Source of the DNA: Escherichia phage vB_vPM_PD114
DNA: 64,000 bases
Reading direction: 5' to 3' (one strand)
Sequence record: MH675927.1
Shown here: positions 9,286 through 53,764 of the stretch, in pieces
Layout: each line of letters opens with the position of its first letter
How positions within the stretch are numbered: position 1 is the first letter of the stretch
Notes under the pieces: generated by a model
Seen by the model: the letters and a program-made list of their open reading frames with translations, nothing else
Told to the model about the DNA's origin: nothing
The model's database searches: none
Translations under genes and position numbers: made by a program

Positions 9286-9306
9286 TATTCACACAATATT
9301 TAATTA

Positions 9307-10254
9307 TTAGAAACAGTGCAGGAAGTTTCGACCATATTGCAAACCAATAGGAGCAAATGGGATATCATCATCGAAATCTTGAACAACAGGTTCTGGTTCT
9401 TTCGGTGCTGGCTCTTTCTTCTCTACTTTTTTAGTTTCTTTCTTAACTTCTTGTACTGGAATAGACATTCCACGGATAGCAGCAGCTACTTTATCAGACA
9501 AAGCAAGAACTTCACGAGCAGCTTCAATAATCTCTTCTGCCGTTACAGTTTTACCTGTATGATCACGACAAGCGTTAAGAATTGCGTGTCCAACTGAAGC
9601 ACCAAGATCATAGTCAGTCACATCAACGCCACGATCTTTAGCAATTTCAGCTTTCAGAGTAACAGTTGCAGATTGTACCACACCAGCCAAGTCGAAAGCA
9701 TCACCTTTCACACCAGCACGTAGAAGCTCCAGAGCGCCGTTTACAGCGTGTCCTGTTTCAATCCCTACGGTATCACGTTTTTTGTAGTTAGGCTTGCTAC
9801 CGTCATTATTAGATGGCTTATTTCCACCTTTTGAAGAGGATTGTGCTTGCTGAACACCTTCTGTTGAAAGAATAGTGATTTTACCTTTAGAGGAGTTGTA
9901 GTATGTTTTGCCATTCCATTCGGAAGGTTTAACATCCATAGTTAGTTCTACGCCTTTTTCGATAGTAACCCACTTATCACCATCTTTAACTTGCAGGTTT
10001 TCATGTTCTGGGTGCAGTTTAACTTCACCTAGGCTAACCCAAACACCTTTATCATCAGCACCAGCACCTTTCTCTTTAATAAGCAGAGATGCTTTGTGAG
10101 TTGATTCAATTTTCTTATCTGGTTGACCTGCAACCTTAATATAAGAGACTTTCATTTCATCAAACTTATCTAGTTTGACATATTCGACAATACCTTCAGC
10201 CCAGAATGCTTCTTTTTTAGTACGACGGTCGATTTCAGAATTAATTACTGGCAT
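9307..10254 (-). CDS. putative ssDNA-binding protein (SSB-like acidic motif DFDDDIPF near C-terminus)
   Basis: GAGGAG RBS; 315 aa; contains DFDDDIPF, identical to the E. coli SSB C-terminal tip, but followed by 15 extra residues (APIGLQYGRNFLHCF); adjacent to replication genes. Confidence 0.4.
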   Translation of the reverse strand: MPVINSEIDRRTKKEAFWAEGIVEYVKLDKFDEMKVSYIKVAGQPDKKIESTHKASLLIKEKGAGADDKGVWVSLGEVKLHPEHENLQVKDGDKWVTIEKGVELTMDVKPSEWNGKTYYNSSKGKITILSTEGVQQAQSSSKGGNKPSNNDGSKPNYKKRDTVGIETGHAVNGALELLRAGVKGDAFDLAGVVQSATVTLKAEIAKDRGVDVTDYDLGASVGHAILNACRDHTGKTVTAEEIIEAAREVLALSDKVAAAIRGMSIPVQEVKKETKKVEKKEPAPKEPEPVVQDFDDDIPFAPIGLQYGRNFLHCF

Positions 10255-10270
10255 AAATTCTCCTCTATAA

Positions 10271-10669
10271 TTACATTACTTTAACACAAAACTCTCGTAA
10301 AAGAGTAGCGTCAGTTTCTTCCAACAGGTATTTACCAAGACCAATACCAAATCCTATTTCACCACTTTCAAAATGGAGAATTTGTATCTTTTCTCCACCA
10401 AGGTTAATTACTTTTGCTTTTCCAGGATTGTCCAAAACATCTCGTATTGTGTCCTGTAGTAGCATTAGTTCACGTTTTGTGATAGTGGTTTCAGATATCT
10501 CTTTGTCTTCTACCCGCACTGTTAAACGGTTGTATCCACCAAAGAGACATAGTATTTGAATAAAAAAGGTATTATCTTGAGGTTCAACATCTTTTTTAGT
10601 TAGTTCAAGACGATTAGTTTCTCTACTGTAGAACGTCTCGACTAAGATTTTAGAACGATTGTCTGTCAT
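10271..10669 (-). CDS. hypothetical protein
   Basis: 132-aa ORF with GAGGA RBS; no recognisable motif. Confidence 0.45.
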   Translation of the reverse strand: MTDNRSKILVETFYSRETNRLELTKKDVEPQDNTFFIQILCLFGGYNRLTVRVEDKEISETTITKRELMLLQDTIRDVLDNPGKAKVINLGGEKIQILHFESGEIGFGIGLGKYLLEETDATLLREFCVKVM

Positions 10670-10712
10670 TCAAGTCCTCATAATAACACATAATTGTAAG
10701 GTTTGTCAACAC

Positions 10713-11306
10713 TTAAATCTTAAATTCTTCGTTGTTAAATGAATCCAGTGTACGTACTTCTGGTTCTTTGGGAATGAAAACGTCTTTTACAAAGCGGAAC
10801 ATAGGGAAACGTTCTGCCATTTTACGGACGTGTGCTTCTTTACCTGTGTATCGGTGATTAATAGTGCAAATATTAGTTTTCAATGCAAACTCAAAATCTG
10901 GATGATATACATAATTTTGACCATCCCAGTAACACAGGCAAATAGCTACGTCAAAGTTCCATACGATTTCACTGCGTACACCCTCTTCCATGATCATAAA
11001 GTTAAACTTAAGGTCTTTATAGTATGCTTCAAATACCCATTTCAAATGTGGTAGTTCGGCATAAGTGTGTTCTGTTTGCTTAGTAAGTTGTTTAACATTA
11101 CGTGCACCAACACCCAACATCAAAAACTTCTCTACTAGCACGAGTGTATTGTGGTTAGGCATACGCAAGTAAATGTCAATGTCTTGTGCAGGTTTCTCTA
11201 ATCGCCAATCACGTACAGCGCCGCCAGCTACAATTGCAAACGGATCTACCAGTTGGCACATACGTAATACTTCTAAAGCGCGTACTTTTTGATCTTCAAT
11301 ATTCAT
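10713..11306 (-). CDS. nucleotidyltransferase of the poly(A) polymerase / tRNA CCA-adding head-domain family
   Basis: Motif VAGGAVRDWRL...DIDIY matches the GGxVRD...DxD signature of PolyA_pol/CCA-adding enzymes; start placed at ATG 11306 (RBS AGGAGA) rather than the upstream GTG. Confidence 0.6.
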   Translation of the reverse strand: MNIEDQKVRALEVLRMCQLVDPFAIVAGGAVRDWRLEKPAQDIDIYLRMPNHNTLVLVEKFLMLGVGARNVKQLTKQTEHTYAELPHLKWVFEAYYKDLKFNFMIMEEGVRSEIVWNFDVAICLCYWDGQNYVYHPDFEFALKTNICTINHRYTGKEAHVRKMAERFPMFRFVKDVFIPKEPEVRTLDSFNNEEFKI

Positions 11307-11314
11307 ATTTTCTC

Positions 11315-11911
11315 CTATCGTTTCCACTCTTTGTGTTGTTCTACATGCTCAAGCATTTCATTATATAGTGCTTTAAGATGTGGAACAACTCTTTCATCTT
11401 CAGTTTCAAAGAATTTTGTAAGCTGCTCTGCCTTAGCTTTCAACCAGCAAAGATGCGCTTCAATTTCAGTATTAAAACGTCCCAGCGTTTTCATGCGACT
11501 GCCTACTTTTATGTTGGCTTTATACTTTTTACGATCTTTCTCGTAACTACAGCCTACCATAGTCCCATGAGATCTTTTACTTACTCTATAAGCTAAGAAC
11601 TTATTAAGATCTCCTGTTACTAAAAGACAGGTATCGGGAGAGTAAACTCTCCCTCCTATAATATCTTTATCAAGTTCTAAGTTTTCCCAGTTATCCCAAG
11701 TTTGCAACCAGGAATAGAAATTGGAGAACAACTTCCATTCTTCACAAACCGTCACCCCCTTATAACAAGGATCACGTTCTTGTTGACAAGGGGAGTAACA
11801 CCTCCCCAACATAGCCATCCATTTCATATAATGCGGCGTTAGTTTCTTACTACCAGGTAGTGTACTCTCGCCTTCCAAATCATTAATACCTTCACTATAC
11901 ACGGTAAGCAT
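11315..11911 (-). CDS. putative homing endonuclease-like protein with AP2-type DNA-binding domain
   Basis: N-terminal WMAMLGRCYSP...YKGVTVCEEW block typical of phage HNH/AP2 endonuclease families; C-terminal YEKDRKKYKANIKVGSRMKTLGRFNTEIEA is AP2-like; adjacent to the DNA polymerase gene. Confidence 0.5.
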   Translation of the reverse strand: MLTVYSEGINDLEGESTLPGSKKLTPHYMKWMAMLGRCYSPCQQERDPCYKGVTVCEEWKLFSNFYSWLQTWDNWENLELDKDIIGGRVYSPDTCLLVTGDLNKFLAYRVSKRSHGTMVGCSYEKDRKKYKANIKVGSRMKTLGRFNTEIEAHLCWLKAKAEQLTKFFETEDERVVPHLKALYNEMLEHVEQHKEWKR

Positions 11912-11938
11912 AAAAACTCCTTTAAAATCAAAGAGATG

Positions 11939-14900
11939 TCAGTGACAAGTTGACCATGAACTACCAACATCGTAACCAGCAGTTAGAGGTACATTAAGAT
12001 TGTAATACTCACCAGCTTTATTAACAGCGATAGATGCTAATTCTCCAGCACGACTGTAGGCTGTAAACCAACCACCTTTCGGAGATTCATGTACGTTAGC
12101 CCAAATCTTGCCAGTACGTTTCTCTTCCTCTTCTTTCCAGGTATTAACTTTATCCAAACATTCTTTATCAATTTTCTTTTGTTCTTCTGGATCATCAACT
12201 TGAGTCCAACCTAAAGATTCTTTAGAGAACCATTTAAAATGCACGAGATCACGAGTTACTTCAAGCTGTGCTTCATCGTGATATGCAATCATTTGTTGAA
12301 CGAATGACTTATTTTTCCAGTCATCAACAAAAAAGTCAACAGCTAATCCTTCTTCTTCGATAAGATCGTCGTAGATAACCATTGCTCTTTTTGCACAAAT
12401 AACACCACCACTCTGGAACAGAGAGTTAAGTATTGCGTGTGCAGATCGTGTAGGTACTTTCCTACCATCAATACCAAGAATGTATTTCTTACCTGTTTTA
12501 ACCCAAAAATCATGCAGACGTTCTTTAAGAAGTGCAAGAGGTTTTGCAGCTTCCCAGAAAGCATCGTATACAAGCTGTCCTGTATACATATCACTACCAA
12601 TAGTTTTTGCTACTTTTGCAGCTTGAGCACCATAAGTAATACCATACTTAACAGATTTAGCAGGGCTTCGTTCAAACTTACGACCAATAGTGTCAGAAAT
12701 ACGTCGAGCCATCATTGTATGAACATCATTAGGTTTTTCCAACAATAGAGCATTACAATATTCGTGTGGTTCCTGCTCGTACCGCCAACAATTCCCTGTA
12801 ATCGTGATGCAGTCTTTCTGACGCATAACCCATGTACCGAGTTCTGTTTGTGGACACCAAACATCTTCTACACCCCATTCTTCAATAGTCAGACTTTGAA
12901 CAGGGATGTGAGAGCGGTTAGCCAACGTTGCCACTTTTACTTTCTGGTCTTTCGTATTGAAGGCTACAGAAATATTACCCCCATGAACCAGGTATGAGGC
13001 AGTTAAGGCTGCTTCAAAAAGTTCTCCTGGGTTCTGCGCCCAGCGCCAAACAGGTTTTTGTTTATGTTTGTGCCAGTAACCATCCGCAATCAAAAAACCT
13101 TCCAAGAAAGCCACACGCTCGGCATGAGACATATTAACTACACGTTCTACCCACGGAACATCCCATTTACCTTGTTGAACAGAAGTTAAACTATTTACTT
13201 GATCTTGTTCCATGTTAAATGGAGCATTACAAATAATGTTATCTCCTGTGCAAAGCTCGGCAGTTGTTCTGACTTTAGGCACATAAGTATTCCCTGTACT
13301 ACGAGTATTAACATACCAACGGTGATCTGCTGTTGCACGATAAGTATGGGATTTTCCTTTAATCTCAAACGTCTTACTATTTTTATAGAAGACCTTACCT
13401 TTTACTTTAGTCCATTCTTTAAGTCCTGTTTCTGGGTTATATCCTAAGATTTCATCCCCTTCTTGTAGATCGTGATAACCAACCCAACCTTTACGGGTTA
13501 GTGCTTGTGCATCCATAGGTACACAGTAATGTGATTCTATTTTTGCCTCAAGAGAATCAAAGTCATAACCAATTTGGAAGTATTTTGGAACTTCTACACC
13601 AAATAAGTTACGCATTTCATATCCGTACAGAGATGTTACACGTGGGATGTTTGCTACTAACCTATGTTTCATACGAGACGTAGCTGCATCGCACGTTGCA
13701 GCAGGGGTTGGTATACGACCATCAGCCCTTACTGCCGCCAGATAACCTTTATCGTAATCCTCTTCATCCTCTTCCCAATCAGCGCCACCCCCTAGAATAG
13801 AGTTCCTACGATGTTTATACGTAAGATACTGCACAATCTGCGTAGCATAAGGAAACTTTTCACCTAGTGCTTCCAAGTTAGGACAAATATCCTTCTCTTG
13901 CCCTTTTGTAAAGGAAGGGTTAGTAAGCACTTTAACACCACGGCCTTTAGCTTTAGCAATACGATCTCTTAGTTTCCATTCCAAAGTTTCTGGTGTGCAC
14001 TCCAGATGATCACATCTATCCTGGCAGAAGTTAGATGCTAACGTTTGATCAACATAGTCACGAATAGCTTTCTCCATTTGTGCTTCATCTTTCTTAATCT
14101 TAGTGCCAGATTTAAGAGTGATATCTTTATCTTTATATTCAGATGGACTCCAACCTAAACCAACTAACCAATTTTTAATATGTGTAGTGTCGTCTAAAGT
14201 AGCAGGTACTGTAGGATCACAAATAGGTTCTTCTGCTGGAATAGGTAGTTTAAACTCCTTACCTAATGCAAATAACCACCAACCATCTTCTTTTTGTACA
14301 AGTTCACCAGAATGTTTCTCTGCAAACTTTATCATGTTACTTGAAGGTTCACCATTCTTTTTAAACTGTAGTTTAGGTGGAATGAATGATTTCAAATAAC
14401 CTTTAGTAGCAGGTTTAGGAGGTAGTACAGGTTCTGCCTCTAAACGACATGCTTCCATTCGAGCATCCAGATCACGAATATTATCTTCTGCTTGTTTCAT
14501 ATTGAAAGCAAAGCCACGGTGCTCTTGACGTGTAATAATATCAGCTACACGTTGTTCTAAGTTAAATGGTTCAGACCACTTATTATAATCACCCCACTCT
14601 TCCATCAAATAACGGAACACTGCGGTGTTAGCTTTGTTATCGTAAATACAGTAATACAGCATATCTGCTGCAAATGTTCTAAATCTTTCAGTTTCAGGGA
14701 TGTTTTTTCTAAAATCAATTTTAACATCCCCTCCAGCTTTCTTAGATAACTCTGCCAGACTATGACCACCGAAGCGATCAGGGTTTAGTGTCTTACTTAA
14801 GATCATAGTATCACAAATTTCAATGTTACTATTACCCCAAGTATTGTACTTAATACTGTAGTTGAGTTTAAAAAATAATTTAATTGCCAGTAAGTCGAAG

Positions 14901-15253
14901 TTAATGATGTTGTGTCCAACTACTTTGGTAATTTTATAGTTTGAATTACCTTTAAATTTACCTGTTCCATTTACAAAATCAGGAAAATCTTTAAGAGGGA
15001 AATGGGTATATTCTAAATGCTCATATTCCTCCAGTCGGTATTCATACTTTCCGTCAGTCTCAATATACGGACGACCATCGAAAAGATATTTATCACCATC
15101 ATGGAAAGCAATAATCTCTCCAGTATCATGACTTTCGCACACAATACAGTGCATTGCAAAACTATCTTTTAAACGATATGGACTTGCCAAGTAATCTACA
15201 CTTTCGTCATTAAGCAAGTTGTTACTTTCAATGTCGAAAGTAAAAGCTCCCAT
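11939..15253 (-). CDS. DNA polymerase, family A (T7 gp5-like), with 3-prime-5-prime exonuclease domain; contains an intein
   Basis: N-terminal exo motifs (FDIES, HCIVCESHD, GGHSLAEL) and C-terminal motifs (KSVKYGITYG, GIDGRKVPTRSAHAILNSLFQSGGVICAK, AYHDEAQLEV) colinear with T7-type polymerases; RBS AGGAGGGAGA. Confidence 0.9.
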   Translation of the reverse strand: MGAFTFDIESNNLLNDESVDYLASPYRLKDSFAMHCIVCESHDTGEIIAFHDGDKYLFDGRPYIETDGKYEYRLEEYEHLEYTHFPLKDFPDFVNGTGKFKGNSNYKITKVVGHNIINFDLLAIKLFFKLNYSIKYNTWGNSNIEICDTMILSKTLNPDRFGGHSLAELSKKAGGDVKIDFRKNIPETERFRTFAADMLYYCIYDNKANTAVFRYLMEEWGDYNKWSEPFNLEQRVADIITRQEHRGFAFNMKQAEDNIRDLDARMEACRLEAEPVLPPKPATKGYLKSFIPPKLQFKKNGEPSSNMIKFAEKHSGELVQKEDGWWLFALGKEFKLPIPAEEPICDPTVPATLDDTTHIKNWLVGLGWSPSEYKDKDITLKSGTKIKKDEAQMEKAIRDYVDQTLASNFCQDRCDHLECTPETLEWKLRDRIAKAKGRGVKVLTNPSFTKGQEKDICPNLEALGEKFPYATQIVQYLTYKHRRNSILGGGADWEEDEEDYDKGYLAAVRADGRIPTPAATCDAATSRMKHRLVANIPRVTSLYGYEMRNLFGVEVPKYFQIGYDFDSLEAKIESHYCVPMDAQALTRKGWVGYHDLQEGDEILGYNPETGLKEWTKVKGKVFYKNSKTFEIKGKSHTYRATADHRWYVNTRSTGNTYVPKVRTTAELCTGDNIICNAPFNMEQDQVNSLTSVQQGKWDVPWVERVVNMSHAERVAFLEGFLIADGYWHKHKQKPVWRWAQNPGELFEAALTASYLVHGGNISVAFNTKDQKVKVATLANRSHIPVQSLTIEEWGVEDVWCPQTELGTWVMRQKDCITITGNCWRYEQEPHEYCNALLLEKPNDVHTMMARRISDTIGRKFERSPAKSVKYGITYGAQAAKVAKTIGSDMYTGQLVYDAFWEAAKPLALLKERLHDFWVKTGKKYILGIDGRKVPTRSAHAILNSLFQSGGVICAKRAMVIYDDLIEEEGLAVDFFVDDWKNKSFVQQMIAYHDEAQLEVTRDLVHFKWFSKESLGWTQVDDPEEQKKIDKECLDKVNTWKEEEEKRTGKIWANVHESPKGGWFTAYSRAGELASIAVNKAGEYYNLNVPLTAGYDVGSSWSTCH
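12791..13525 (-). mobile_element. intein inserted after polymerase motif A (about 245 codons, LAGLIDADG-type endonuclease motif)
   Basis: In-frame block CVPMDAQALT...ITITGN followed by Cys; contains VAFLEGFLIADGYW; flanking extein ...LEAKIESHY|CWRYEQEPHEY... is contiguous relative to T7-type polymerases; terminal dipeptide is GN rather than HN. Confidence 0.7.
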
Positions 15254-35340: not shown

Positions 35341-35619
35341 CATTATGTTCAAAGTGGCTCGCAAGGCCACTCCCGCACCATTACGTGCTGCTGCATGTCA
35401 CCATGCAGATCAGACTATATCTTCATGCTTAAAGCATGTCTACCATTTGGGGTGTCATAGGCTTACACCCTACGCTGCTACATTCATCACAGCTAGTCGT
35501 TAGGCATTTCGTAATAGTACCCCCTTCTTCTGTGTTGGGAGTTCTGTTACGTTTAGCACGGGATTGTCTCGTTGAGAGTTCCCCCGTTTAGGCAGATTTT
35601 ACATGAGCAGTTATAGTTT
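35341..35619 (-). ncRNA. group I self-splicing intron (td-like, no internal ORF) interrupting nrdD
   Basis: 279 nt between the two nrdD reading frames; core-like TAAACGGGGGAACTCTCAACGAGACAATCCCGTGCTAAAC and P7 3-prime element AAGATATAGTC; CTGCATG-GTGA-CATGCAG hairpin near the 3-prime end; ends GAACATAATG; exon 1 ends ...ATGGGT. Confidence 0.75.
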
Positions 35620-36477
35620 ACCCATGCTTGTGACGCGACCATCTGAAGATCCTGTAACTTCTTTGTTTAAAGGTACAGAGATAAAATCAGGATAAATGCG
35701 TTCAGCACAACACTCCATTGCCAGTTGCTTCAAATCATAGTTTGGATCGCCAGCTTTCATGTTAACACCATCTTCCAAGAAGAAGATAACTTTAGGAAAC
35801 ACAGGAGTTACCCTATCTTTTCCTAATCCTTGTTTGTGCACCATTAGGTAGTTTTTAGTGATCATTCTACCAAAAGCAGAGGTATCCAAACCTAAACTAA
35901 TTGTTATAAAAGGTGACTGACCATTTACACTCATTAGAGTGTTCACCTGGTAGATTAAAGTTTGCATTGCATCATAGACCTGTTTATCTACCATACGCAT
36001 AGCAATATCATAATCGCCAACATCGGCATATATTTTATTAAAACTTGCTTTAACGTATTGACTAAGCCCAGTATCAACATGTGCACAAGTTTGTCCACCA
36101 TATTGGCTAGAGGCTACTGCTTGAATAATTTGAGTTAGGACAGTAGTTGCTACACCGATAGATTTTGGTTTTTCAATATGTGCATTACCAATACGGAAAC
36201 CGTTCTCAAGCATATCTTGGTAATTTACCAGGCAACAATTAGTTAGAGGTGAGAGTAAATAATCTAAATCGTGAATGTGACCATACCCGCTTTTATGCCA
36301 TTCTGCCAGATCTTCCGGTAAAATATGGGTCATTGCCATGTGCTTGCTCAGAATACCTGCTAGTAAGTCTCGGTGAGTATTAACAATCATTGCAGGTTTG
36401 TTTGCATTTTCACGAGTAAATTCTTCGGATGTTTGTTCGAGGAATCCGATTACATCCTCATATAGTTTTTGGGTCAT
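35620..36477 (-). CDS. nrdD: anaerobic ribonucleotide reductase NrdD, exon 1
   Basis: Start ATG 36477 (RBS GGAGG); reading frame stops 9 nt into the intron; splicing predicted to join ...RVTSMG to CRSFLSYY..., giving a 599-aa product. Confidence 0.8.
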
Positions 36478-52416: not shown

Positions 52417-52634
52417 TATTTTGAAAATTTTTATTTTTATAAAAAGGGGTGTGGGTTTCATGTACGGAAATCCACCCTCTGAATAATATATCCAGAGTAA
52501 GTAGTATTCTGTACTCTGTTAATAAAGTATTTAATTTGTTTGTTGGACTATGATATCTGATCTTTAAAAGGCATACTATCTCTTAACTACTACTTATAAC
52601 AAAACAGTAAAATCCTTTTTATAAAAAGTACAAA

Positions 52635-52840
52635 ATTATTTAAAGTTTTTACAGATTTTCGGGTACAAATTTTGAAAATGAAAAGTTCAAGTTTGGTCAA
52701 AATTATTTAAAGTTTTTGTACGTATTTCTATCCAGATTTTGAAAATGAAAACTTCAATTTTTTAAAAATTCCCCAGTTTATTTAAAGTTTTTTTGCCTTT
52801 TTCCGTAGAAAAATCAAAAATGAAAAGTTCAATTTCGTGT
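52635..52840. repeat. three tandem direct repeats of about 66-76 bp
   Basis: Each unit has TTATTTAAAGTTTTT (52635, 52701, 52777) and TTTTGAAAATGAAAAGTTCAA (52671, 52737, 52811). Confidence 0.7.
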
Positions 52841-52855
52841 TTTTATAGGTGTGTT

Positions 52856-52967
52856 AATGAGAATCATTTTCGTTTGTAAATGAGAATCATTATCATTTAA
52901 CTATGTAAGTGATAATCATTCTCAGTAAGAGAATGAGAATCATTAGCAAATGAGAATTTTTCTCATT
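52856..52967. promoter_or_regulatory. cluster of Fur-box-like palindromic sites (AATGAGAATCATT family)
   Basis: At least five copies; AATGAGAATCATTATC (52879-52894) matches 15/16 positions of the E. coli Fur consensus; perfect palindrome AATGAGAA-TTT-TTCTCATT at 52948-52966. Confidence 0.45.
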
Positions 52968-53229
52968 TACAGAATAACGCGCAGGGGCGGTGTTTGTCTC
53001 GCGCTCCCGTGTCCCCTCGCCATACAATAAGAATAGCATAACCAACAACAAAAGCAAGCGATTATTTTTATCTTTACATTTCTTTACAAATTTATTTTAG
53101 ACGAGCTACCGGCGATCAACCTTCCAACCAGTGCCCCCTGGTATGTTAGCCCCGCCTTTACGCCGTGGGGGTGGCGTTTCCTCTTCTGTATGTAAAACAG
53201 TATAAGCCCGATCCCTGGGCTTGTCAAGA

Positions 53230-53496
53230 TTATTTTTTGTTTTCTTGCCAGGATAGGACACCTAACCAAAAATACATGTCGCCCCGCGCCCCTGGTGGGA
53301 TCTTGCTTTCCCCGCCGCCACTGCAAGCCCATAGATAACCATTTACGAACGTATCAAAGTGATCTATCTCTTCCACCTTATGATCGCCCAGGTTGAGAAC
53401 GGTTTCAACCTTTAAGCCCGTTGCGCTTGCTACCTGGTGCACCGTGCCGCCTTGCCAGCCCAGTGAGTGCATGAGATGTAAAGGAGTATTTGTCAT
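53230..53496 (-). CDS. hypothetical protein in a G+C-rich island
   Basis: 88-aa ORF with RBS AAAGGG; region is visibly more G+C-rich than its surroundings; no motif recognised. Confidence 0.35.
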   Translation of the reverse strand: MTNTPLHLMHSLGWQGGTVHQVASATGLKVETVLNLGDHKVEEIDHFDTFVNGYLWACSGGGESKIPPGARGDMYFWLGVLSWQENKK

Positions 53497-53607
53497 GGTA
53501 TCGCCCTTTCTTTGTTGTGCGCCCTGGTTGGCGCGGTAGAAAGATGATAGCCGTTTCCTTTATAGATAGCAAGCAAAAAAGAAATGAAAAAAGATTAAAA
53601 AAAATGG

Positions 53608-53636
53608 TTGACGTTCCTCACCTGGTAGCGTAGTAT
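53608..53636 (+). promoter_or_regulatory. sigma70-like promoter (TTGACG-17-TAGTAT), first of the rightward early-gene array
   Basis: Near-consensus hexamers with 17-bp spacer about 130 nt upstream of 53765. Confidence 0.5.
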
Positions 53637-53764
53637 TCATCTTGTCGAGGGGCGGCAAGGCACAACGACAATAAACAATAGGCGGGTGCAATGCAAGACG
53701 GGCAAAGGTGAGGATCTCCACAATCCACCGTCACAATAACATTACTTATAAAAGGTTGATAACA

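Follow-up and report, generated by a model that had tools for sequence, protein, structure and literature searches.

A probable minimal relative of the Gabija anti-defence protein Gad2 in the replication module of a phi92-like coliphage

Gad2 (Gabija anti-defence 2) is a 400-aa protein of Bacillus phage SPbetaL7; deletion of gad2 renders that phage Gabija-sensitive, and co-expression of a 394-aa homologue from Brevibacillus abolishes the defence (10.1101/2023.05.01.538930). The SPbetaL7 protein is toxic when expressed in bacteria, and a nucleotidyltransferase (NTase) domain has been predicted in Gad2 by AlphaFold (10.1101/2023.05.01.538930); few other anti-defence proteins have a predicted enzymatic action. 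A 2026 review still gives its mechanism as unknown, and places the action of Gabija at the ends of phage DNA where RecBCD activity is lacking (PMC12904381); we found no solved Gad2 structure. Here we analyse a gene at positions 10713..11306 (minus strand, stop codon included) of a 64,000-nucleotide stretch, hereafter the window, from Escherichia phage vB_vPM_PD114 (MH675927.1), a phi92-like virulent E. coli myovirus of the genus Justusliebigvirus (~148 kb). Its 197-aa product is very probably a Gad2-like minimal NTase. The gene is already annotated in GenBank and already covered by a Pfam family; what is new here, judged from sequence, is its recognition as a minimal Gad2 relative and as a conserved part of the replication module in the Stephanstirmvirinae (Justusliebigvirus, Phapecoctavirus).

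The open reading frame (ORF) runs on the minus strand, as do all features given below, from an ATG at 11306 to a stop codon at 10713-10715. An alternative GTG start at 11327, which would add 7 residues, is possible, but the ATG is preferred because an AGGAG ribosome-binding site (11312..11316) sits 5 nt upstream of it, overlapping the TAG that ends the HNH gene before it. Over positions 9300-12000 the window shares 99.0% identity with phage vB_vPM_PD06 (hereafter PD06); proteins 99-100% identical to the window protein occur in 43 phage records and proteins 95-99% identical in 12 more, and the exact protein sequence is present in 472 blocks of a public assembly collection. The protein is labelled 'nucleotidyltransferase' in RefSeq, as are identical proteins in GenBank, and the PHROG of that name (1614) matches it at E 2e-34. 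The ORF is a real gene and not a chance reading frame, and it is one already catalogued; the 197-aa protein that the first-pass annotation had placed here agrees with the frame, the ribosome-binding site and the 43 near-identical records, and with the PF26128 assignment and the AlphaFold2 model described below. Searches of PDB, NCBIfam and PADLOC with the single sequence returned nothing useful, and a word-indexed homologue search with the window protein alone gave 2 matches; that search was reseeded with the Phapecoctavirus orthologue and after that with an alignment. The isoelectric point was dropped as a clue to nucleic-acid binding, being uninformative (6.3 for the window protein, 6.2 for E. 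coli Cca).

The relationship to Gad2 is seen with several methods. PF26128 ('Gad2') is recorded at E<=1e-5 for the exact window protein, for a 99%-identical protein (P0001) and for relatives. For profile comparison we took nine Gad2 homologues, one of them experimentally verified, from Supplementary Table 10 of Yirmiya et al. (10.1101/2023.05.01.538930). Aligned to these nine with hhalign, the profile of the window protein's family reached 96.9% probability (E 2e-10) over 125 columns, a region comprising the AGG turn, the DxD, an F-D-x-x-x-C strand and the helix that follows; aligned to the verified Brevibacillus Gad2 alone, it reached 87% (E 3.7e-6). Even single sequences can be paired, the window protein and the verified Brevibacillus Gad2 showing 24% identity over 117 aa by BLASTP (E 1e-5). 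A rough hidden Markov model (HMM) of the nine homologues scored the window protein at 21.7 bits and its 41-45%-identical relatives at 39-44 bits, and gave no match to E. coli Cca or PcnB. Like Gad2 (ORF159 of SPbetaL7 and its homologue from a Brevibacillus laterosporus prophage), the window protein is phage-encoded with a homologous NTase domain, and the published list of Gad2 homologues includes short forms of 214-278 aa. The alignment spans Gad2 residues 14-142 only. The two genes also differ in setting: gad2 belongs to an anti-defence locus found in temperate SPbeta-like phages, the window gene follows polA in a virulent myovirus.

Sequence and conservation, the latter given throughout for 242 family sequences, show what is predicted to be an intact catalytic core, with a GG turn, both aspartates of the DxD and a probable third carboxylate. 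The first half of motif A, A27-G28-G29-A30-V31-R32-D33-W34 (11205..11228), forms the hG[GS] nucleotide-binding turn, and its second half, D42-I-D44-I-Y46 (11169..11183), supplies two putative metal-binding aspartates; the GGAVRD...DxD signature noted in the first-pass annotation is there in the translation, as AGGAVRDW at residues 27-34 and DIDIY at 42-46. G28, G29, W34, D42 and D44 are conserved in 100% of sequences, R32 in 98% and D33 in 90%. E93 (11028..11030), in the 'FEA' of an h[DE]h pattern on strand 88-96, is the likely third catalytic carboxylate, assigned putatively by position and pattern rather than by superposition; the position holds E in 69% of sequences, D in 8% and N in 11%. 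Conserved residues outside these motifs include Y82 (99%; 11061..11063), a tyrosine in a loop of lower model confidence, K162 (97%), A10 (96%), Q6 (95%), F118 (89%) and C123 (72%).

The AlphaFold2 model made with the family alignment has a mean predicted local distance difference test score (pLDDT) of 91.8 and a predicted template-modelling score of 0.84, with lower confidence in the loop at 71-90 (pLDDT 74-79) and in the last 20 residues (63-74). Its best matches among solved structures by Foldseek are all class II template-independent RNA 3'-end NTases (E 2.5e-6 to ~1e-4), with TM-scores of 0.41-0.54 when normalised by query length and of 0.20-0.31 when normalised by the length of the targets, which are 342-517 aa long. 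The model shows what is predicted to be a cut-down class II (CCA/poly(A)-polymerase-type) head with the first neck helices, and many phage models of 167-215 aa in BFVD share this fold.

Likeness to the class II enzymes extends to the head-domain fold and to motif A (GGxVRD...DxD), and stops there. Motif B (RRD), which recognises the ribose 2'-OH, and motif D (EDxxR), the protein template for the incoming base, are both missing from the window protein. Anchored on predicted secondary structure and on a collinear, non-significant hhalign of Gad2 with Cca rather than on three-dimensional superposition, motif B would map to N117-F118-D119-V-A-I-C and the motif D helix to residues 153-168. In the former stretch F118-D-V-A-I-C123 (10938..10955) is the apparent counterpart of class II 'RRDxTINA' and of Gad2 'FDFTVC'; N117 and D119 are not conserved, both motif B arginines are absent, and the family conserves no arginine there. 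In the latter, the first neck helix at Y153-P168 (10803..10850; helix 158-166 in the model), no position among residues 154-161 (TGKEAHVR) reaches 60% conservation and no ED..R is found; the helix keeps K162 and F167-P168.

Sequence profiles point the same way. The window protein scores 19.1 bits against Pfam PolyA_pol (PF01743), for which the cut-off is 23, and over residues 26-81 only; seven relatives scored 13-20 bits or did not match. In a family-profile search of all PDB sequences CCA enzymes appeared at no better than E 0.068, the match lying over motif A, and hhalign paired the family with E. coli Cca over 24 columns (13% probability) and with PcnB over 53 (46%), AGGAVRDW being the sole stretch that aligns with both. 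In all, profile likeness to class II enzymes such as PcnB (3AQL), the Aquifex aeolicus A-adding enzyme (4WBY/4WC2) and the B. stearothermophilus CCA enzyme (1MIV) covers ~25-55 residues only. Those enzymes bind the tRNA acceptor and T-arm with body and tail domains, which are absent here; the protein ends at residue 197, too short for body, tail or HD domain, so it has no tRNA measuring device and no HD domain. The lack of body and HD domains had been noted in the first-pass annotation. That annotation's reading of the remainder as the head of a CCA-adding enzyme or poly(A) polymerase survives in part: the head fold and motif A stand, while the PolyA_pol threshold is missed and RRD and EDxxR are gone. 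A stand-alone 'CCA-adding enzyme head domain' protein is known from S. pneumoniae (NP_344798.1, 191 aa; PDB 2LA3, an entry titled 'Uncharacterized protein'), but it is bacterial, 9% identical, and bears no sequence-level relation to the window protein that we could detect. It is unlikely, on this sequence evidence, that the window protein is a CCA-adding enzyme or a poly(A) polymerase, and beyond motif A the label 'tRNA nucleotidyltransferase / poly(A) polymerase' is unsupported; this common database label for such genes is probably misleading whichever function proves correct.

The family is large and almost confined to phages. A profile from 118 homologues retrieved 3049 cluster representatives (50% identity) at E<=1e-3 and 1136 at E<=1e-10; members are nearly all free-standing proteins of 175-250 aa, and the matches in annotated collections belong to phages of Escherichia, Klebsiella, Vibrio (including ICP1), Aeromonas, Pseudomonas and Pseudanabaena, among others. 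As a rough indication from a single peptide pattern, a scan of one genome per species across 185,579 bacterial and archaeal species found 3 loci, all on contigs of metagenome-assembled genomes. A few family members carry N-terminal extensions without a Pfam match, of 70-100 aa in P0252, P0176, P0212 and P0238, and in P0148 and P0142 as one or two copies of a ~90-aa module, likewise without a Pfam match; these extensions might hint at targeting or substrate binding. The 400-aa P0148 was considered as a long form of the Gad2 type and rejected: its NTase domain is C-terminal, and it lacks a match in Bacillus phages.

The gene lies in a replication module. On the minus strand the order is primase-helicase, a 130-aa ORF, DNA polymerase I (with an intein), the HNH gene, the NTase, a 132-aa ORF, a 315-aa SSB-like (single-stranded DNA-binding) protein and a methyltransferase. 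The polymerase gene upstream (11939..15253, assigned from the ORF list and the annotation of relatives) encodes 1104 aa with the intein, and the annotation in phage SD2 reads 'intein-containing DNA polymerase precursor', whereas two contigs that encode an identical NTase (L021 and L022) have an intein-free, 859-aa polymerase with PF00476. Between polymerase and NTase lies an HNH homing endonuclease gene (11315..11911; PHROG 953, E 7e-73), whose stop overlaps the NTase ribosome-binding site and which is absent at that position in L021 and in Phapecoctavirus. The 859-aa polymerases and the HNH-free contig indicate that the intein and the HNH gene are mobile insertions, and in L021 the NTase directly follows polA. 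Directly downstream of the NTase is a conserved 132-aa protein (10271..10669; PHROG 16560), and the 43-nt gap after the NTase stop holds a near-consensus sigma-70 promoter (10680..10709; TTGACA-18-TATTAT, 11/12 matches, with an extended -10 TG); with this promoter just past its stop, the NTase seems to end the polymerase transcription unit. The 315-aa protein (9307..10254; PHROG 4477) owes its SSB-like label to the annotation of one relative, in phage ESCO9, and had no match in a Pfam search.

The same arrangement, polA followed by the NTase, a protein of ~131 aa and one of ~300 aa (295-317 aa), is found again in Phapecoctavirus (37% identity) as well as Pseudomonas phage PsgM04F (35% identity), and in eight of the nine lineages sampled the gene sits in a replication or nucleotide-metabolism module. 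Its neighbours are a DNA polymerase and ribonucleotide reductase in Pseudanabaena phage PA-SR01, nrdB and nrdG in an Aeromonas phage, DNA ligase in ICP1 and VnaP, and a helicase, an RNase-H-like protein and a helix-hairpin-helix protein in a Zobellviridae phage; the exception is the VH-8-like Vibrio phages, where no replication neighbour is obvious. The ICP1 homologue, which matches residues 3-126 of the window protein only, appears in many isolates as two ORFs (139 + 60 aa) or as a 137-aa protein (e.g. ICP1_2006_A, L002 3959-4541) and may be a decaying or shorter variant.

We hypothesize, tentatively, that the window protein serves in counter-defence of the Gad2 type by tailing 3' ends. Two-metal catalysis would add a nucleotide, taken from an NTP or dNTP, to a hydroxyl on the acceptor; by analogy with the nearest fold, this may be the 3'-OH at a nucleic-acid end that phage DNA metabolism generates, and by analogy with Gad2 the outcome would be protection against nucleases that sense DNA ends or nucleotides, such as Gabija. 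An acidic-aromatic C-terminal tail might dock the enzyme on a replication or SSB-interacting partner. That tail, VFIPKEPEVRTLDSFNNEEFKI, comprises the last 22 residues (10716..10781), is acidic and aromatic and is probably flexible, its pLDDT being low. The syntenic Phapecoctavirus orthologues end in ..(D/E)DDIPW, resembling the DFDDDIPF near the C-terminus of the neighbouring 315-aa SSB-like protein, where it lies not at the very end but 24 residues before it, followed by APIGLQYGRNFLHCF. Both DDIPW and DFDDDIPF resemble the C-terminal tip with which E. coli SSB recruits its partners. Of 176 members with no more than 60% mutual identity, 8 have a P[FWY] ending, such as ..DDIPW or ..IPF, where 0.87 would be expected, the maximum in 500 shuffles being 4, and several Gad2 homologues end in ..KPIF, ..VPIF or ..YPWF. 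A family-wide enrichment of C-terminal aromatic residues was not seen (32 against 25 +/- 4.7), the P[FWY] ending alone being enriched. These tails are a modest hint that the NTase docks on replication or SSB-interacting proteins.

Several observations weigh against a Gad2-type role. Conservation and synteny of the gene extend over Justusliebigvirus, Phapecoctavirus and a Pseudomonas phage, a pattern more in keeping with a core function than with a variable anti-defence gene. The studied Gad2 proteins are 394-400 aa long and have a ~230-aa C-terminal region that the 197-aa window protein lacks, and at the site of the family's invariant (P/V)RDW Gad2 has ITSLF; with the R32-D33-W34 signature missing from Gad2, the two are distinct subfamilies. 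SSB-like tails are found in only ~5% of the family, and the window protein's own ending, ..LDSFNNEEFKI, is non-canonical. Finally, the analogy is limited by Gad2 itself, whose mechanism is unsolved (PMC12904381). Our literature search found no published Gabija phenotypes of Justusliebigvirus or BASEL phages.

It is tempting to go one step further and to propose that the enzyme, tethered by its acidic-aromatic tail to the phage replisome or the SSB interactome, adds untemplated nucleotides to 3' ends or nicks of phage DNA, camouflaging them from end-sensing nucleases such as Gabija. Such nucleotides could be deoxy- or mixed because the ribose-sensing RRD is gone, the relaxed sugar specificity being speculative in itself, and we consider this specific version decidedly improbable. 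If true, it would reveal the mechanism of Gad2 and define a new class of counter-defence. The window gene offers a domain-only Gad2 relative in well-studied, tractable virulent phi92-like coliphages, which include the BASEL phages Bas60-62. Should its product counter Gabija or a related sensor of DNA ends, it would provide a simple model in which to find the substrate of the Gad2 NTase domain, and it would follow that this domain works without the long C-terminal region. Should it not, there remains a large, almost phage-only family (>3000 clusters at 50% identity) of class II-derived NTases in replication modules.

Among the alternatives to counter-defence by 3'-end tailing, the first is that the enzyme is a housekeeping replication accessory with no link to defence, a terminal transferase or a primer- or end-processing enzyme for genome replication or maturation. 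The order of polA, NTase, 132-aa protein and SSB-like protein kept in three genera, the presence of the gene in essentially all Justusliebigvirus records and the SSB-tip-like tails of some orthologues all speak for such a role. We nevertheless think it unlikely: many isolates have a split or truncated ICP1 homologue, suggesting that the gene is dispensable there, its position varies by lineage, with RNR or ligase beside it instead of polymerase, and Gad2, the closest protein whose role has been shown by experiment, acts in counter-defence.

Of similarly low probability is an acceptor that is a small molecule or a protein, with the enzyme producing a nucleotide that acts as a signal or decoy, or nucleotidylylating a defence protein of the host, giving inhibition of the Gad2 type without any involvement of nucleic-acid ends. 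The enzyme has no obvious domain for holding a nucleic acid, and Gabija is reported to sense nucleotides. There is also a precedent in other small phage NTases, which make cyclic dinucleotides that block TIR-STING (10.1101/2022.06.09.495361). These enzymes, the MNT-like NTases of phages BCP1 and Av05 described by Ho et al., are small members of the Pol-beta superfamily that produce the competitor cyclic dinucleotides as counter-defence, and their signature is GS-x-AY[GAN]T-x4-SDxD (10.1101/2022.06.09.495361). That signature is absent from the window protein, in which the corresponding AGGAVRDW...QDIDIY is class II-like. The 'phage NTase / Atd1' system of Ho et al., reported in Justusliebigvirus and Phapecoctavirus, was considered as an identity for the gene and rejected, its NTases being MNT-like and Atd1 a MazG-like pyrophosphatase.

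We are equally doubtful that the protein tails RNA in the manner of a poly(A) polymerase, adding untemplated tails to host or phage RNAs and so altering their stability, for example by hastening the decay of host mRNA. The protein has neither the RNA-binding C-terminal part of poly(A) polymerase I nor the motif D nucleotide template, and its context is DNA replication, not transcription or RNA decay. Toxic, head-only NTase-like proteins are known from podoviruses, where they too lie among replication genes (Gp22 of Klebsiella phage fHe-Kpn01, 182 aa, and gp22 of P. putida phage Emajogi, both toxic on over-expression), and homologues of Emajogi gp22 are labelled Gad2 family proteins in some phages. 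They were not picked up by tblastn with the window protein (E<=1e-5) and probably belong to a different subfamily, which further argues against RNA tailing. Their toxicity fits an active enzyme with a host-relevant substrate and does not discriminate among the functions considered here.

Repair or maturation of tRNA 3' ends, in which the NTase would restore all or part of the CCA on host or phage tRNAs damaged in infection, had been suggested in the first-pass annotation and is the least tenable, although the closest solved folds are CCA- and A-adding enzymes, GGAVRD..DxD is identical to class II motif A, the lineage possesses 15 tRNA genes together with a repair cluster of RNA ligase and phosphoesterase, and some relatives are annotated 'putative tRNA nucleotidyl transferase / poly(A) polymerase'. 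The protein is without the body and tail that would hold a tRNA elbow, neither RRD nor EDxxR is conserved, PolyA_pol falls below the Pfam threshold, and the protein belongs to the Gad2 family. Nor is the gene tied to phage tRNAs. A tRNA gene search of the window found none. The complete PD06 genome contains 15 tRNA genes, outside the window region; as all 15 encode CCA, none of the phage's own tRNAs depends on CCA synthesis, and a cca gene is present in E. coli itself. Vibrio phage 402E50-1 (complete genome, 46.9 kb) encodes a family member and no tRNA gene. In PD06 the RNA ligase/repair genes lie at 104.3-106.2 kb and the NTase, adjoining DNA replication genes, at 53.4-54.0 kb, ~51 kb away. 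The RNA-ligase-associated Pol-beta NTase family RlaP (PMC7824862) was likewise set aside, judged by context, there being no genomic association with an RNA ligase.

Some further features of these genomes were recorded. In PD06 the regions recorded are contig L012 32884-35939 (~94.9-97.9 kb, outside the window) and contig L011 4287-6177; besides its 15 tRNA genes, PD06 carries a phosphoesterase / RNA ligase / ATPase cluster, NadV with Prs, and a MazG-like pyrophosphohydrolase, and this distal gene set looks like a sizeable toolkit for RNA repair and anti-defence. Within the window, ~1.3 kb at ~52420-53700 has no ORF longer than 88 aa, no gene is annotated in the equivalent part of PD06, and neither a tRNA nor an Rfam family was found there. 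A group I catalytic intron (RF00028) lies on the minus strand of the window at 35391-35665, matching the full-length Rfam model at 72.5 bits (E 1.8e-16); by comparison with PD06, which annotates the large subunit of anaerobic ribonucleotide reductase as two adjacent genes, it probably interrupts the gene for that subunit.

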